Positions 4,935-56,795 of a stretch of DNA of 64,000 nucleotides are shown one piece after another. Position numbers and translations under genes: made by a program. This DNA is from Chiloscyllium plagiosum (taxonomy: Eukaryota): contig NC_057731.1 of NCBI RefSeq assembly GCF_004010195.1, positions 43,480,219-43,544,218 of the forward strand. Reading direction: 5' to 3'. Position 1 is the stretch's first letter; each line of letters opens with the position of its first letter. A model generated the notes under the pieces. That model was not told where the DNA came from and did no database searches. It was given only the letters and a program-made list of their open reading frames with translations.

Positions 4935-5420
4935 ACAGAGGTTGAGGGGTGATCTTATAGAAGTTTATAAAATCATGAGGGGCATGGATAGGGTAAATAG
5001 ACAAGGCCTTTTCCCCAGGGTAGCAGAGTCCAAAACTAGAGGGCATAGGTTTAAGGAGAGAGGGGTAAGATTTAAAAGTGACCAAAGGGACAATCTGTTC
5101 ATGCAGAGGCTGGTGTGTGTATGGAATGAACTGCCAGAAGAAGTGGTAGAGGCTGGTACAATCACAACAATTAAAAAGCATCTGGATGGGTATATGAATA
5201 GAAAGGGTTTAGAGGGATATGGGCCAAATGCTGGCAAATGGGATTAGAATAATTTAGGACATGACATGTGGAATGTGGTTAATAAGGAAAGTGGCCAGTA
5301 TGTTCTCAAAGTGTGAGGGATGGATAATAAATGTTAGCATTACAAATAACACCTATCTGGTTGGCAGGGACAAGTTGGACTAAAGGGTCTGTTTCTGTGC
5401 TGTACAAATCTATGACTCAC
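4935..5420 (+). mobile_element. CR1 LINE 3' end containing a 97-nt foreign insert
   Basis: RGDLIEVYKIMRGMDRVN...VWNELPEEVVEA; tail interrupted at 5261-5357. Confidence 0.9.
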
Positions 5421-5879
5421 TGCTTCCTGTACTTCAGGCAGAAGTAAATGACTTTTTTTTAAACAACTTACAACTTGCTTGTTGCTTTATTGTTTCAGAT
5501 TACAGTGAACCTATGGTCTGTTGCCTCAACTTTCTCACTCATGCAAATAGACTTTGTTTGCACGGAGCAATTACTCTCTGCTGTTAATGATGGGTGGAAC
5601 TGCCTTTTGAGCTGGAGAATAAGGGGACAGAGGGCCTAGTCGTCTGTTTTAACAAGTGCAGCCTACTGCAACTTCTAGGCCTATGTTTGACATATACGTA
5701 TCGTGTTGATTTGCATGAACTGTTTTATGGCTTTATTCTCTTAAGCTGCTGATTTTACTGTCCTATTCTCCTTGATTGATGGGATAGGTGTTATTTGTAA
5801 TGCTAACATTTATTATCCATCCCTCACACTTTGAGAACATACTGGCCACTTTCCTTATTAACCACATTCCACATGTCAT
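5261..5879. repeat. Perfect 97-bp inverted repeat (5261-5357 = reverse complement of 5783-5879)
   Basis: Base-by-base comparison shows no mismatch. Confidence 0.95.
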
Positions 5880-24279: not shown

Positions 24280-25968
24280 TTAGCTGGGCTCCGCTGCGGC
24301 ATTGTGTCGTGCTCTAATTCCATCCTGGCTGGGATTTTTCAGACTGTATTCCTGAATTAGGACCGCCGTGTTCCTCAGCATCTCGGTCCAGGTCCAACGC
24401 GCCTTGCGGTAGGAGGCGCGGTGCGTTACAAAACTACGGAACAGGTTGAGGGGCTCAGCGGAGCGGAAGGCCTCTGGGATGTCCAAGTCGGGGAGGATGG
24501 CCACGTTGCCAATCATGAAATGGTTCAGGCGTTTCTCCAGCAGAGCCTTGTCCAGGTACCGCAGCAAGTCCCTGAGCCGGGGCTGAAGGCACGAGTGGTG
24601 CCACGCTCCTGGGGCTTGGCTGTTCATCAGGTGCAGGAGGGCAGTTTTGAAGTGGTACTGGCTGAGACCGCTGGCCCCAGTCAGATTGCACTGTTTCTCG
24701 TGGAGAAACGAGACTATTTGCAGACACATCAGGTGGCAAGAACTTTCTGGAAGCTTCTTCGCCATCATCTTGAGGAAACGCTTCTCGTAGACAGCGAATG
24801 TAAAGGGCCAAGCTATGTCGTTGGAATGGACGGTGCCAAAGGGCACATCACTGCCCATTAGGGGCATAAAGTAAACATCAGAGTTTTCAAACTCCACCAC
24901 CGGGAGCAGGCTGAAATGCACGGTTTTCCCCGAGCGAAATCTTATCCTCAGTGCTCCAGGCCTCTCCAGATCCCGAAAGGAAAGATCAAAGTCGTACTTG
25001 TGTGAGATCTTAGCCCAGGCTTTGGTCAGGGCCCTCTGGAACCACTGGGTGACCTGCGTCTTGCCCATGTAGGGAGCAGTAGCAGCCCACAACAGCTTGT
25101 CTTTCTGAGTGGAGCCTGGCAGAGCGGCCTCCAGGGCGTTCTCACCATGCACCAGGCACAGCATGTCCTCCCCCAGCTGCGTCCGGCCACAGACACAGCT
25201 GCACGGGTCCTCTCCAGGATTGATGACACAGACCATCCCAGAGCCAAACTCCCCAGAGACCCTGCCCCCTGAAGCCATCCCAAACCCCCCTCCAGAGCAC
25301 ATTACCTCCGCTCGGAACCGGTAAGGATCTGGGGGAGTGAAGGGTACAATCAGGTCACACACCAAGGGTCTCCTGACCCTCCAGTTCTCATACAGACTCC
25401 CGATGCCAATGCATTCCTCCACCTCCATGTCCAGGTCCCGGTTACACACACTCCTCAAGGCCTCCAACAAATCATCTGCACACCCCTCCACCAGCTCCTT
25501 GATCCTGGACAACTCGGCACCGGGAACGCGGACACACTTGTCGTAGAAGCGGACCAGAGCCCGATGGTCTGGGAGGGCAGCACACCACCACGCCTCCCCG
25601 ATGGCACCAGAGTCTTCGTCCTCATCCGCCACTTCCTGCAGACACCGCGGCTCTGTGTCCTGTCTCCAGACCTCCAAAAAAAGGAATGCAGCCACAGAGA
25701 GAGCACTCCACAGGCTCCAGCCGTACTCCTGCCCCTTCCCTGGCTCCCCTCTGGACTCCAATCCCAACTCCCCTGGAGGCGACTCTGCCAATTCCTTCTC
25801 CAGCCTCTGCATCTCGGCTTGAAGATGTTCCTCACGCTCCTTCATCCGCCTCAGGCTCTCCAGCTCCCGCTGCTGCTCTCCGTTCCACCTGGCCTCCTGG
25901 AAGGTGAATGGCTGATTGATCACCGTGACTGCCATGACCAGGCACACGGCTAGGATCCCAACCGGCAT
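24280..25968 (-). CDS. ITPRIP: Inositol 1,4,5-trisphosphate receptor-interacting protein (Mab-21/cGAS-like fold), 562 aa, single coding exon
   Basis: Signal-like N-terminus MPVGILAVCLVM, coiled coil, TM segment WSLWSALSVAAFLFLEVWRQD, DDLLEALRSVCNRD, PFTPPDPYRF, HFKTALLHL, AEPLNLF. GCCATG start with a splice acceptor 12 nt upstream; synteny with GSTO. Confidence 0.96.
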   Translation of the reverse strand: MPVGILAVCLVMAVTVINQPFTFQEARWNGEQQRELESLRRMKEREEHLQAEMQRLEKELAESPPGELGLESRGEPGKGQEYGWSLWSALSVAAFLFLEVWRQDTEPRCLQEVADEDEDSGAIGEAWWCAALPDHRALVRFYDKCVRVPGAELSRIKELVEGCADDLLEALRSVCNRDLDMEVEECIGIGSLYENWRVRRPLVCDLIVPFTPPDPYRFRAEVMCSGGGFGMASGGRVSGEFGSGMVCVINPGEDPCSCVCGRTQLGEDMLCLVHGENALEAALPGSTQKDKLLWAATAPYMGKTQVTQWFQRALTKAWAKISHKYDFDLSFRDLERPGALRIRFRSGKTVHFSLLPVVEFENSDVYFMPLMGSDVPFGTVHSNDIAWPFTFAVYEKRFLKMMAKKLPESSCHLMCLQIVSFLHEKQCNLTGASGLSQYHFKTALLHLMNSQAPGAWHHSCLQPRLRDLLRYLDKALLEKRLNHFMIGNVAILPDLDIPEAFRSAEPLNLFRSFVTHRASYRKARWTWTEMLRNTAVLIQEYSLKNPSQDGIRARHNAAAEPS

Positions 25969-26124
25969 GGCCACCCAACTCTGCACTGGGAACGAGAGAG
26001 AGAAATCACCATGAGAATCCACTGGGAAAAACAAGGGGCATGGAAACATGGAAAAGGAACATCCGGAACCCATCCTGGACGAAACAAGGGGTTAGACACA
26101 GGGGCAAACGTAGGGGAAAACAGA

Positions 26125-28494: not shown

Positions 28495-29018
28495 CCAACA
28501 CACAAAAACAGCAGCTAATGGACTTAAAAGGCCGTATTACAGCCAACAAGCAAAACCAACGTCATCTACAAAATACCTTGCAAGAACTGTAACAAACACT
28601 ACATTGGACAAACAGGCAGAAAACTAGCCACCAGGATACATAAACACCAACTAGCCGCAAAAAGACATGACCCTCTCTCACTGGTATCCTTACATACAGA
28701 TGAGGAAGGACACCACTTCGACTGGGACAACACATCCATCCTAAGACAAGCCAAACAGAGGCATGCACAAGAATTCCTGGAAGCATGGCATTCCAACTGG
28801 AACTCTATCAACAAGAACATCGATTTGGATCCCATCTGTCACCCACTAAGTAAAAGAACAGGACATGACATCACCAACCCAAGGACCCCCCAAACACATA
28901 AATAGAAAGCAGGCCATAACGCCAGTGCTTCACCAGAGGCTCACTGATGATGTTACATAGTTTGATGACGAAATGTCTGAAAACAAACCTTCCAGCTCAG
29001 CGAGCTAACTTACATCCA
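28495..29018 (+). mobile_element. Penelope-like element 3' part (GIY-YIG)
   Basis: TNVIYKIPCKNCNKHYIGQTGRKLATRI; decayed hammerhead motif at 28944-28977. Confidence 0.9.
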
Positions 29019-29069
29019 GTTTTTTTCTCTCTCTCTCTCTTGATTGAGACAGCAGCCCTAAGGTCTAGT

Positions 29070-39962: not shown

Positions 39963-39990
39963 CTGAAGATGGGCTTTTGCCCGAAACGTC
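39963..39990 (+). ncRNA. Minimal type I hammerhead ribozyme motif in a short Penelope-tail insertion (~39955-40085)
   Basis: CTGAAGA-T-GGGC-TTTT-GCCC-GAAA-C-GTC; core intact but stem I weak. Confidence 0.7.
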
Positions 39991-40899
39991 GATTCTCCTG
40001 CTCCTTGGATGCTGCCTGACCTGCTGCGCTTTTCCAGCAACACATTTTCAGCTCTGATCTCCAGCATCTGCAGTCCTCACTTTCTACCCTATTACTTTTA
40101 CAGGTAACTGTGATCTCCTTACAAATTTATTTCTCAATTTCCCGCTGACTATTGGTGGCGGAGGTGGGGGGAGGGGTGTCTATAGTACAATCCCAATTAG
40201 GTGATCATCCCTTTCTTATTTCTCAGTTCCACCCAAATTACTTCCCAGGAATAATCTCCCTAAGAACAGCCACAATGTTATCCCTTATCTAAAATGCCGT
40301 TCCCCCTTCTCTCTTGCACACCTTTCTGTCCTTCCTACAGCATTTGTATCCTTTGTTTATGACTCTTAACTATCCTTTGATATTAGCCAAGCAAGCTATT
40401 CAATTAGTGGGAACAAATGGTTGCTCATAGCCATTAAAAAAATAAAGTGTGCTGTTGCAAATGACTCAAATGCAAACAATGGGAAAAATGTCATCATTCT
40501 GTGTTGTAACCATTCCATCTGGTGAGATCATGGCTGCTCTGTGACTGACTCTGAACCTTGTCTTTGCCCCCCTTTCCTTGAGTATCTTTTGTTAATAAAG
40601 ATCCATCAACCTCAGACTGAAAATAACCAATTGTTCTAACAATCAGTTTGGATTTTGGGAGGAGGGTTTCAAACTGCTCCCATGCTTGTGTGTAGAAGTG
40701 TTTCCAAGTTGCGCTCCTGAATTGTCTCACTCTGATTTCTATACTCTGCCTCATGGTCCTAGACTCCGAGATCAGCAGAAATCACCTCACTGTATTGGCC
40801 TATCTGTTCCCATAGTATGCTGAAAACTACATTCCAGGGAGTACACCCCAGATACTGTAACCTCCCATTGTAATTTAAATCTCAGATTTCAAATCATTA

Positions 40900-42796: not shown

Positions 42797-43535
42797 AGTG
42801 GGACCCTGTTCTAGTGAGAGTTTGTGTGTATGGGACCCTATCCCAGTGAGAGTCAGTGTGTGTGTGGGATGCTGTCCCAGTGAGGGTCAGTGTGTGTGGG
42901 ATCCATACCCCAGTGAGGGTCAGTGTGTGTGGGACCCATACCCCAGTGAGAATCAGTGTGAGTGGGACCCTGTCCCAGTGAGAGTCAGTGTGAGTGGGAC
43001 CCTGTCGCAGTGAGAGTCAGTGTATGGCACCCATACCCCAGTGAGAGTCAGTGTGTGTGTGTGTGGGACCCATACCCCAGTGAGAGTCAGTGTGAGTGGG
43101 ACCCTGTCCCAGTGAGAGTCAGTGTGTGTGTGGGACCCTGTCCCAGTGAGAGTCAGTGTGTGTGTGTGTGGGACCCTGTCCCAGTGAGAGTCAGTGTGAG
43201 TGGGACCCTGTCCCAGTGAGAGTTAGTGTCTGTGTCGGACCCTGTCCCAGTGAGAGTCAGTGTGTATGTGTGGAACCCTGTCCCAGTGAGAGTCAGTGTG
43301 TGGCACCCATACCCCAGTGAGAGTCAGTGTGTGTGTGTGTGTGGGATCCTGTCCCAATGAGAGTCAGTGTGTGTGGAACCCTGTCCCAGTGACAGTCAGT
43401 GTGTGGCACCCATACCCCAGAGAGAGTCAGTGTGAGCGGATCCCTGTCCCAGTGACAGTCAGTGTATGTGGGACCCATACCCCAGTGAGGGTCAGTGTGT
43501 GTGGGACTTGTACCCCAATCAGAGTCAGTCTGTGT
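42797..43535. repeat. ~28-34-bp minisatellite GGGACCCTGTCCCAGTGAGAGTCA(GT)n
   Basis: About 24 copies with a variable GT tract. Confidence 0.95.
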
Positions 43536-45192
43536 GAGATGAGCAAGAAATGTTTAGTAAAAGTGAGCCAGGCATCAATAGGTTAATGTTCTCAGTGGGA
43601 GTGTCTTGTGACATTTTGTCCATGAATCTGCAATGTGACAATATTTCCTGGACTGAAATGTTCACTAAAAGTTTCCATAGCCCGTCAACATTTTCCCAGC
43701 TCCTGTTTGCTATTTGACTGTCCACTGATATTTGCTGTTGACTGACCAAAGGGCAGGTTTCAATACCTTCCGGCACCTTCCCCCAGCCTCCAAAGTGATG
43801 TGGTTGATTCCTTTTTCCGGTCTGTCACAAACATTACAAAACCTGATGCGTGAGAACAGGAGGAGGTCTGCTCTTCCGTTAAACTAGGCCGTATCGGATC
43901 TATATCTTAATCTTAACTTCATTTACCCACCTTGGTCTCATTGATCCATTTTGCTGAACAACGATCTCCCGAGCACAGTTTTGATATTTTCAATTACACA
44001 TCCAAAAGCTTCAACTGCTTTACAGGAGAGAATTCCAGATTTCCACGGGGTGTGAGGAAGTGCTTTCTGACATCACCCCTGAGTTTCTTCCCTTGAAAGG
44101 AAACATTTTCCTCATTCAATGCTATCAACTCTTTAAATCACTTTAAACATCTCACATTTTTCAACCCAAACGATTCTAAACGCTAAGGTGTATAAACTTT
44201 GTCTCATAATTTAGCCTTTACAGCCCGAGGGTCATTCTGCCAAATCTACAATGCTCCTCTTTAATCAACTAAGCAACAATACAGAATTAACCTATAAACC
44301 ATGTGGGTGTACAGTGGCTCGGTGTTTAGCACTGCTGTCTCACAGCTCCAGGGACCTGGGTTTGATTCCACCTCAGGTGACTGTGTAGAGTTTGCACTTT
44401 CTCCTCATTGCTGCTGGGTGCTCCAGTTTGCTCCCACAGTTCAAAATAGGTGGATGAGCTTTGGGAAATGCAGGGTTATAAGGATAGAGTAGGGAAGTGG
44501 GTGTATTGGGATGCTCTTCAGAGGGAGGGTGTGGACTCGATGGGCCGAATGGCATTTATCATTCTATGATATTCCCCCCAACCATGGTGCAAACAATTCA
44601 TACCCAAAGAGGGTGAGATGTCACAGGTCTGCAGAGCAATCATGAGTGGGGGAAATGGGGAAGAACCTTGTTGATCATGTTCAAACTAAAAGTTTGAAAT
44701 GAGGTGACTTCCTCACAGTTCCATTGGTTTCTTGTCAGTGAGATTACCTGGCATCAGCCACACAACAATGGAAAGCCCACCATTTGGGTAGCAGGTCAAC
44801 TAGACCTAGGTCTGATGGTAAGGTTAACAGTTCAGCTTTCAGAGTTTATGAGGAGATCTAACATATTGACACCTGGAAATTTCTGTGATTCACAGAGACA
44901 CTTCACTGAGATATTCTACTGGTTTTATTTAACAGTTATATTGTTACTTATTTAAAAGAGAAAGGGGTGTTGTCTTCCTTCTTACTAGCTTATTCAAACT
45001 GCCCACAGTTTTAACACATCATATCAGTCCAAAGGCTGTTGCTAGAGCCCCTCCACAGTTTTGTTTGTCTGGATGTAGGTTAGCTCGCTGAGCTGGAAGG
45101 TTCATTTTCAGATGGTTCGTCACCCTACCAGGTTATATCTTCAGTGAGTCTCCGGACGAAGCTAAAGGTAAAGCTAAAGCTGACGAGGCTCA

Positions 45193-45226
45193 CTGAAGAT
45201 GTTACCTAGTAGGGTGACGAAACGTC
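45193..45226 (+). ncRNA. Minimal hammerhead ribozyme motif, copy 1
   Basis: CTGAAGA-T-GTTACC...GGTGAC-GAAA-C-GTC; 3-bp stem I TCA/TGG. Confidence 0.72.
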
Positions 45227-45764
45227 TGGAAATGAACCTTCCAGTTCAGTGAGCAAACCTACATCCAATAAAGTACTTTCAATGTAGCAACTGGACTGTA
45301 ACAAGACAATCAGCTTTGTCGTAATATTAGTTGAGAGATAATATCGGGGAGGACGTTTGTGAGAGTTCTTTAAATAGTGCTTTGGAATCATTTGCAGCCA
45401 CCCTGAAAGAGCAGACAGGTCTCAGGTTAATATCCCACCCAAGAGACAGCACATCTGATAGAGCAGCACTCCCACAATGCTGCCACAAGTTAGATTCTCT
45501 TGCTCACGTGTATGGGACAGAACAAGAATCCACAATTGCCTCACTCAAAGGTGAGAATGATACCCATAGAGCCATAACTGCTATGCTCTCCATAGACCCA
45601 AAATCATGAGGACAATGTCATCGAGTCCTAGAGATGTACAGCATGGACACAGATCCTTCAGTCCAACTTGTCCATGCTGACCTGATATCCTAAATTAATC
45701 TAGTTCCTTTTGCCTGTGAGTCTCCGGACGAAGCTAAAGGTAAAGCTAAAGCTGACGAGGCTCA

Positions 45765-45798
45765 CTGAAGATGTTACCTAGTAGGGTGACGAAACGTC
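45765..45798 (+). ncRNA. Minimal hammerhead ribozyme motif, copy 2
   Basis: Identical to 45193-45226, 572 nt downstream. Confidence 0.72.
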
Positions 45799-46994
45799 TG
45801 GAAATGAACCTTCCAGTTCAGTGAGCAAACCTACATCCAGAACATCAACCTGAGCTACAAATCTTCTCAAAACTCATTTTGTTTGTCTAGCAATAAGTTC
45901 ATAAAACAATTTGTTTTTTGTTACAAAAAACCTTTCCCCCAAACTTGGCTTTTTATAAATAGCAAATATTCCCTGTTCTTCTGAACCTTTGACATTTGCA
46001 TTCCAAAAAGTCAAACAGTAAATCTTTTGCAACCCAGGAATAGTACAAATCTTCTATTTTCTAATTCTGTTAATCTATAATTATACATATTACATATTAT
46101 ATGTGTGTTCCCAACAAGGCAGATCCAATTTAGTTATCATAGAACAACCCTCTCACACCAGGGACCAATCTAATGCACCTTCACTTCACCGTATCCAACT
46201 TACCTGTGAGTAAATCACATTTAAAACAAGATTATGGGGCATCAGTAGGAATTGGTCCCTGGACCTGATCAGTTGGAGTGGGGACTGCTCCCTCCACAAT
46301 AGCCAGTTCACTCCCAGTGAAGATTCAGATCTCCTGGCTTGCTGGGGAAAGTAGGATTAGAGATGGCTATTGAGGTGAGGGCGTCTGGACCAGGGATATG
46401 GGGCCAGAGGAGGGCCGTAGCACTCCATTTGGAACTGCATGAACAGTTTAACTGCTGGCTACATTTATATAGCACCTTAAACATTCTCACAGTGCTGCCC
46501 AGGAACAATAATAAAACAATACATGATACTGAGTCTCATGAGGAGATAGTAGATCAGGTGACTGAAGATTTTGTCAAAGAGGTGGGGGTTGGGGTTTAAA
46601 GAATAGTTCTGAAGGAGGGCAGTGAGGTAGAGAGTCAGGGAGAAACAAACACACAGAATATCTGAGAAATGCAGCAAGTGTGGCACCATCTGTGGAACAG
46701 AGTTAACATTTTGAGTCAAGTATGTATTCTCATCTAAAGGATTAAGACGGAAATCCTGTTTGAGAGAAGAGCGAAACGTCTTCAAGATGGATGTACCTGG
46801 ATTAAACACATAAATCAAAGTTAGATCATGTGGATGCTGGAAATCTGATGGTTATGATACTATGGGATCTGGATAGGTTTACATAGGGGACAGCAGAGTT
46901 ATAGTTGTTCTTAGATTTGCAGTGGGGATGATGTGTGAGGTCAGTCATTTATATAGTGAATTACCTCCTCTATTCACTGCCTTCAATGAATTAA

Positions 46995-55425: not shown

Positions 55426-55549
55426 AAGAAGGGCTTATGCCCGAAACGTCGATTATCCTGTTCCATGGATGCTGCCTGACCTGCTGCGCTTTTCCAGCAA
55501 CACATTTTCAGCTCTGATCTCCAGCATCTGCAGTCCTCACTTTCTCCTC
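55426..55549 (+). mobile_element. 124-bp Penelope-tail insertion, truncated inside the hammerhead core
   Basis: 12-bp TSD GGTGTTTAACCT (55414-55425, 55550-55561). Confidence 0.85.
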
Positions 55550-56229: not shown

Positions 56230-56795
56230 TCTCTGTGCTGTCTGCCCCATAAAGCACAGCGCCTACTGGAGCAACAACACCTTATCTTCCACCTAGGCAC
56301 CCTACAGTCCTGAGGACTTGACACTGCGTTCTCCAATTTCAAACAACCTCCTTCACCGTACCCTTCCCAGCCCCTATCCCTCCATCCCACTGCTCCCTGC
56401 CACCCAACCGGATTCCTTCCTCCCATTGATCAACCAGGCTGTGCCCTCTACCTAGGAGTAAGTGAGGACTGCAGATGCTGGAGATCAGAGCTGAAAAATG
56501 TGTTGCTGGAAAAGCGCAGCAGGTCAGGCAGCATCCAAGGAGCAGGAGAATCGACGTTTCGGGCCTGAGCCCTTCTTCAGAAATGAGGAAACCTGCCTTC
56601 ACCTACCCCCACTCCACCACCCTGCCACCCCCTTTACTGCAGCCCCCTCCCACACCCAACCCCCCCAGTCCTGAAAAAGGGTTACACCCTAAACGTTGAC
56701 CTCTCCACCCTCTGATGCTGCCTGGCTTGCTGTGTTCTTCCAGCCTCCTGCCTGTCTACTTTGGATTCCAGCATCTGCAGTTTTTTGAGTCTCTA
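56230..56795 (+). mobile_element. Penelope 3' end with an antisense Penelope-tail insertion (~56453-56590)
   Basis: RLLEQQHLIFHLGTLQ C-terminus; own decayed hammerhead at ~56670-56700. Confidence 0.75.
56553..56580 (-). ncRNA. Minimal hammerhead ribozyme motif
   Basis: Minus strand CTGAAGA-A-GGGC-TCAG-GCCC-GAAA-C-GTC; core intact. Confidence 0.7.

Follow-up and report, generated by a model that had tools for sequence, protein, structure and literature searches.

The locus raises the question of whether a short Penelope composite, in which two hammerhead motifs bracket foreign DNA, is a retrozyme-like element or a piece of host DNA that was captured once and has since been inert. The composite lies in a stretch of 64,000 nucleotides from Chiloscyllium plagiosum, all of which was analysed and is referred to here as the window, and its parts follow one another in the order TSD, inverted pLTR arm, filler, direct pLTR, 448-bp cargo, direct pLTR, tail and TSD (Table 1). 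The two TSD copies agree at 12 of 12 positions, a match reached by none of 5999 control position pairs at equal spacing with a slack of ±3 (best control, 11 matches). A sequence-only reading of the window had placed this 12-bp TSD around the composite and had given the order within it as arm, unit, 448 bp and second unit; both are confirmed, with every coordinate right. Two separate insertions on either side of native DNA were considered and rejected, as neither half has a TSD of its own and the 12-mer closes the whole. No open reading frame of at least 100 aa overlaps the insert, where an RT-endonuclease frame was looked for, and the insert is a non-autonomous, protein-less Penelope remnant. 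No empty site was seen among the matches listed for four contig runs at a likeness of at least 92%. Rfam at gathering scores gave no match in the window, a result that is uninformative for minimal hammerheads.

Table 1. Parts of the composite insert, in window coordinates
Feature	Position	Strand	Remarks
Left TSD, 12 bp	45059..45070	+	TTTTGTTTGTCT; final bases also match the element beside its tail-less end
Inverted tail-less pLTR arm	45070..45162	-	differs from the direct part at 10 of 83 sites; core of the hammerhead no longer intact
Unit 1, 124 bp	45144..45267	+	~19 bp of arm, filler, direct tail-less pLTR end at 45185-45267
Filler at inversion joint, 22 bp	45163..45184		internal 9-mer repeat, AAGCTAAAG twice
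Minimal type I hammerhead motif 1	45193..45226	+	predicted cut after 45226; stem I of 3 bp, one wobble
Cargo, host-type DNA, 448 bp	45268..45715		final 93 bp belong to a common repeat
Unit 2, 124 bp	45716..45839	+	identical to unit 1, inversion filler included
Minimal hammerhead motif 2	45765..45798	+	predicted cut after 45798
Penelope 'tail', 37 bp	45840..45876	+	family loose ends behind 45872-45878 in 4/4 runs
Right TSD	45877..45888	+	TTTTGTTTGTCT, second copy

The family is represented once more in the window at 28528-29019 (+), where a Penelope 3′ end consists of a GIY-YIG remnant followed by a tail-less pLTR (the 28.9-kb copy). This pLTR matches that of the insert at 84%, which supports the Penelope origin proposed for the composite, and it ends at the same base as unit 1. 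The remnant at 28.5-29.0 kb is a Pfam match with an E value of 0.00057 that lies below the Pfam cutoff, and any Pfam match was obtained for 2 of the 29 open reading frames scanned; because the remnant precedes the pLTR of this third copy, the family can be tied to endonuclease-positive Penelope elements. Elsewhere in the window, a 603-codon open frame at 24280-26091 (-) carries a Mab-21 C-terminal domain and is ITPRIP-like, which marks the host as a chordate. Contigs from four runs were compared with the window at 92% likeness, namely X1 and X6 from organism A, X9 from organism B and X15 from organism C. Loose ends of the family pile up in these comparisons before 45068/45070, behind 45267 (run X9) and behind 45872-45878, and all three element ends of the insert coincide with family-wide end points. 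A scan of metagenomes for family copies by pLTR motif gave no matches and is uninformative.

The positions of these ends within the pLTR resemble those of a characterized element. The pLTR frame begins with an ATG at stem II (45771 in unit 2), with the predicted cut at +28 and two of the ends at +69 and +106. For the Poseidon element PAc of Anolis carolinensis, PMC11167929 gives a cut 26 bp after the start codon, starts at 111-118, and a tail of 30-40 bp bracketed by two internal RT starts. The locus and PAc share the frame start at the hammerhead stem II, a cut that follows the ATG by 26-28 nt, a pair of end points on either side of a 30-40 bp tail, and an AT-rich target, but the locus is without RT or endonuclease, and the three starts per insertion that we infer at the locus are not shown there for PAc.

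The two 124-bp units (45144-45267 and 45716-45839) are identical as the sequence-only reading had described them, with 0 of 124 differences at a distance of 572 bp, and their identity ends at both unit edges. Their composition departs from that description in part, as only the 83 bp of 45185-45267 are direct pLTR while the first ~41 bp of the unit comprise ~19 bp of arm and the 22-bp filler. Similarly, the inverted arm proposed to precede unit 1 is present but extends to ~45162 and overlaps the start of the unit, and the second unit does run on to the pLTR end, although the final 37 bp are tail and absent from unit 1. The filler has two matches in the window, both in the units, with none expected; its interpretation as a family-wide feature was discarded, since loose ends before 45185 and 45757 show the family continuing with other letters. 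With the 28.9-kb copy as reference, 6 of the 10 differences between arm and direct part are arm-specific and 4 are unit-specific, the latter being common to both units and absent from both the arm and the 28.9-kb copy. One of these four shared changes introduces a stop in the 35-codon pLTR reading frame. The difference between arm and direct part could stem partly from different template RNAs rather than from age. As a result of two unit-shared C-to-T changes (45188-45197, 45245-45254), the hammerhead core is covered by a perfect helix of 10 bp where the family has an imperfect hairpin, which reflects either chance or quasi-palindrome correction.

The foreign segment of 448 bp between the units is likewise borne out. 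Its end at 45623-45715 is a repeat of which the window contains eight further copies, at 76-84%. For parts of the cargo, 'CR1' and 'DeuSINE' are putative labels, and the best in-window similarity bearing on the 'DeuSINE' label has an E value of 0.009. Other repetitive DNA in the window includes a degenerate minisatellite at 43000-43540 with a period of 31-40 bp, and a pair of segments, 39966-40085 and 55426-55545, that are 96% identical. No donor locus for the cargo was found in the window or among the contig matches listed for the four runs at a likeness of at least 92%. In each of the four runs a single long contig carries the non-repeat part of the cargo, and no further cargo copies were seen in any of them among the matches listed at 92% likeness. 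Depth of the cargo resembles that of the flank, at 7.8 vs 6.6-8.8 in X1, 2.8 vs 2.8-3.4 in X15, 7.5 vs 12.8 in X9 and 4.7 vs 6.1-6.3 in X6, and the pLTR reaches 10^4-10^6, far above the cargo, where depth does not equal copy number. Divergence of the cargo is close to that of the flank in both organism B (18/420 vs 23/563, P = 0.87) and organism C (15/415 vs 31/1085, P = 0.50), and the cargo in C has a 17-bp deletion. A cargo-less allele in sample S4, suspected from a low word share, was dismissed, as run X6 contains the cargo at 45330-45646 with 0 differences.

The junctions of the insert in contigs of related organisms bear on the age of the capture. The junction pieces are those among 32 matches listed out of 68,929, with 31 letters as the threshold for bridging. 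Organisms B and C are 2-4% diverged, and the flank-to-arm junction is bridged in both, by 54 letters of arm in B and 42 in C; the same junction is covered by 26 letters in X1, and no junction other than this left one in B and C reaches the threshold. The cargo abuts the tail-less pLTR end in X1, X9 and X15, where the pieces extend 29, 29 and 27 letters into the pLTR and show, on the cargo side, 0/408, 18/420 and 15/415 differences, the last plus gaps. The tail-to-flank junction is covered by 26 letters in X1 and 24 in X15. The pLTR-cargo and tail pieces are too short to link the cargo with this particular copy. Among the 32 of 68,929 matches listed, there is no piece spanning the whole insert and none across the cargo-to-unit-2 joint at 45715/45716. 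In run X6 cover stops right of 45940, with no junction piece among the matches listed, a gap that proves nothing.

The capture is likely to be old and one-off, because the relatives share junctions, the cargo lies on a single contig per run, and its divergence is flank-like. This sets the perfect identity of the units apart, as units already present when A separated from B and C would be expected to show ~3-5 differences, with a probability of 0/124 between 0.005 and 0.053 over five divergence estimates; at the divergence of the arm this probability is 1e-7. A single recent RT event with template jumps, an older palindromic donor supplying the transcript for both units, would account at once for the identity and for the decay and filler that the units have in common; the restarts fall on natural start sites, and the units would be identical because they are young. 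Such an event is very improbable and largely refuted by the flank-to-arm junction in organisms B and C, at 2.5-4% divergence, which shows that the insertion is not young, and no second cargo contig appears as a recent donor among the matches listed. An origin of the identical units in one RT event, the simplest form of the template-jumping capture put forward in the sequence-only reading, is therefore not supported.

The identity points instead either to local copying of DNA at a later time or to a fault in the assembly. Misassembly at a palindromic, high-copy repeat could have created the second unit or its perfect identity, the real second pLTR being diverged or shorter. Such an error is distinctly unlikely, in that three other junctions occur in independent contigs, X1 agrees with the cargo at all 408 positions, the TSD closes the whole structure, and the false joint would presuppose a chimera formed where homology is lacking. 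It would, on the other hand, account for 0/124 differences at an old locus and for the missing cargo-to-unit-2 joint among the matches listed, and such structures trouble assemblies according to PMC8557442. A run of 124 N at 1680-1803 indicates that the assembly may have gaps, its length being the same as that of the unit by what is taken to be coincidence. Copying at the DNA level from unit to unit after the split is the probable source of the identity, because the identical stretch includes the private filler and decay. A circle from another locus entering by crossover was rejected for the reason that unit 2 carries the filler of the insert itself. Elsewhere in the window, the 97-bp segments 5261-5357 and 5783-5879 are inverted copies with 100% identity, the inserted one lying within an old repeat tail 426 bp from its source. 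With microhomology at both joints, this looks like a recent local templated insertion, and it may serve as an in-window parallel for local templated copying.

Taken together, the data are probably best explained by a single protein-less insertion in which host DNA was captured once in an old event, has been inert since, and had its units later equalised by local copying; this explanation requires two events. The joint from pLTR to cargo falls exactly at the tail-less end point of the family, where a random DNA break would coincide in ~3% of cases. Capture by the RT of the element, as earlier proposed, is thus supported as to linkage, with the joint on this end point, but not as a one-event origin of the units. 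An autonomous Penelope protein acting in trans would have cut the target and made short cDNAs, and by the biochemistry of PAc each of the three element ends would mark a start of reverse transcription, the tailed start being used once and the tail-less start twice. A restart may have been primed at, or have landed on, the cargo end at 45268, and end-joining of the pieces would have closed the inversion and left the filler. Once the species had separated, 124 bp, joint included, would have been copied from one unit to the other through gene conversion or templated repair of the one-sided kind.

Capture need not have involved RT if a simple palindromic stump came first and a hairpin break or fork stall at the base of the stem led DNA repair to add the 448 bp and to re-copy 124 bp. 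Unit 2 holds the private inversion joint, and some copying must accordingly postdate that joint; the hairpin 45070-45267 has its base at 45267, the very position where the cargo begins to follow, and local templated insertion is seen elsewhere in the window. We regard this sequence of events as unlikely, since it does not account for a joint exactly at the tail-less end of the family, and the pLTR-cargo junction in B and C marks an old event that would still need later conversion to reach 0/124.

Whether the hammerheads confer a function on the insert is a separate matter. Each unit contains CTGAAGA followed by a single additional base, a stem II of 6 bp and GAAACGTC; the ACGT palindrome is kept, so that the intact minimal-hammerhead core claimed for each is borne out and a cut can be predicted in both. 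By the account of metazoan PLE minimal hammerheads in PMC4209133, the locus shares with them the CUGANGA core, the extra base before G10.1, the G10.1-C11.1 pair, a long stem II, the lack of helix III and the palindromic 15.1-16.1 stretch, but differs in the wobble pair of stem I and the perfect 10-bp helix over the core. Three hammerhead-like cores of another repeat family lie in the window at 39963 and 53466 (+) and at 56580 (-). Selection on the cores of the insert finds no support, as both would be intact by chance with P = 0.45.

Predicted folds argue against efficient cleavage. When the double hammerhead is forced, the fold lies 69-70 kcal/mol above the ensemble in two transcript spans with the arm and 35-36 kcal/mol above it in three spans without, a penalty for which no cleaving hammerhead served as positive control. 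In the predicted folds, the probability that the CUGA bases are unpaired is at most 0.10. Burial of the core is not peculiar to the insert and was set aside as a special feature, as the 28.9-kb copy also buries its core (P(free) 0.013), where freeing it costs 10.3 kcal/mol compared with 14.3-16.5 at the insert. A plus-strand transcript is predicted to pair the arm with one unit and to bury the cores, and release of a 572-nt RNA would be rare.

A working non-LTR retrozyme would require that a plus-strand transcript form the double hammerhead, release the 572-nt monomer and circularise it, and that Penelope proteins re-insert the product. The two intact cores of the same orientation with their ACGT palindromes fit this scheme, as does the monomer length, which falls inside the 51-972 bp given for pLTR-related vertebrate retrozyme monomers in bioRxiv 10.64898/2026.07.22.740005, and the PAc hammerhead is reported to cleave with protein help in PMC11167929. 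According to PMC7229834, retrozymes occur as many copies of tandemly repeated monomers, carry canonical hammerheads and give rise to abundant circles. The resemblance to non-LTR retrozymes as described there and in bioRxiv 10.64898/2026.07.22.740005 lies in a non-coding, pLTR-related sequence with two same-strand type I motifs hundreds of bases apart; the locus differs in having minimal hammerheads and an inverted arm, and neither tandem monomers nor a copy family is seen. The repeat at period 572 extends over 696 bp, or 1.2 copies, which is short of tandem monomers, and the hammerheads are of the minimal form rather than the canonical type I with a helix III stub and loop contacts. Cargo without further copies among the matches listed in 4 of 4 runs, its neutral-rate divergence and the 17-bp deletion in C also stand against the scheme, as do the cost of the double-hammerhead fold and the chance expectation of intact cores. 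Minimal Penelope hammerheads cleave weakly even as dimers according to PMC4209133, and 8 of 9 predicted Xenopus retrozyme dimers were without cleavage in bioRxiv 10.64898/2026.07.22.740005. A functioning retrozyme is consequently the least probable of the readings weighed here, and the retrozyme-like layout and function attributed to the composite are weak, given 1.2 periods, a cargo seen once per run and cores buried in the folds.

A variant in which the locus is a retrozyme at birth is highly improbable as well. Here a Penelope protein would have primed RT on a second cut chromosome piece, which became trapped between pLTR ends, conversion would keep the hammerheads identical, and a transcript starting after the arm would be cut twice with the help of protein; the 572-nt monomer released in this way could form a circle or give rise to a tandem array. 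If true, DNA-primed capture would also explain how Penelope elements move host genes with introns, and retrozymes at birth would suggest an origin of non-LTR retrozymes from pLTR ends and offer a short construct for protein-assisted cleavage by minimal hammerheads.

The layout is already described for Penelope elements, and the locus adds another example. Captures in the rotifer Adineta vaga (Pen3a-NRPS, the Pen1 spacers and non-coding captures; PMC3846280) likewise enclose unrelated DNA with pLTR copies, one inverted and two direct, within an overall TSD; the inverted and direct pLTR overlap, a tail may be present at one end, and there is no element ORF. In contrast to these, the host here is a vertebrate, the pLTR pieces are 83-124 bp long, the cargo is non-coding, the units are identical despite their apparent age, and neither an empty site nor a donor was seen among the matches listed. 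The same general layout appears in PMC8557442, to which PMC6155905 adds nothing further, and no shark study of such captures was found in a literature search that reached few subscription papers. The locus is one more fossil of Penelope-mediated capture of host DNA, here in a vertebrate, and the position of its cargo joint on a tail-less start site bears on the mode of capture, that is, on template jumping between RNAs as opposed to priming on cut DNA.
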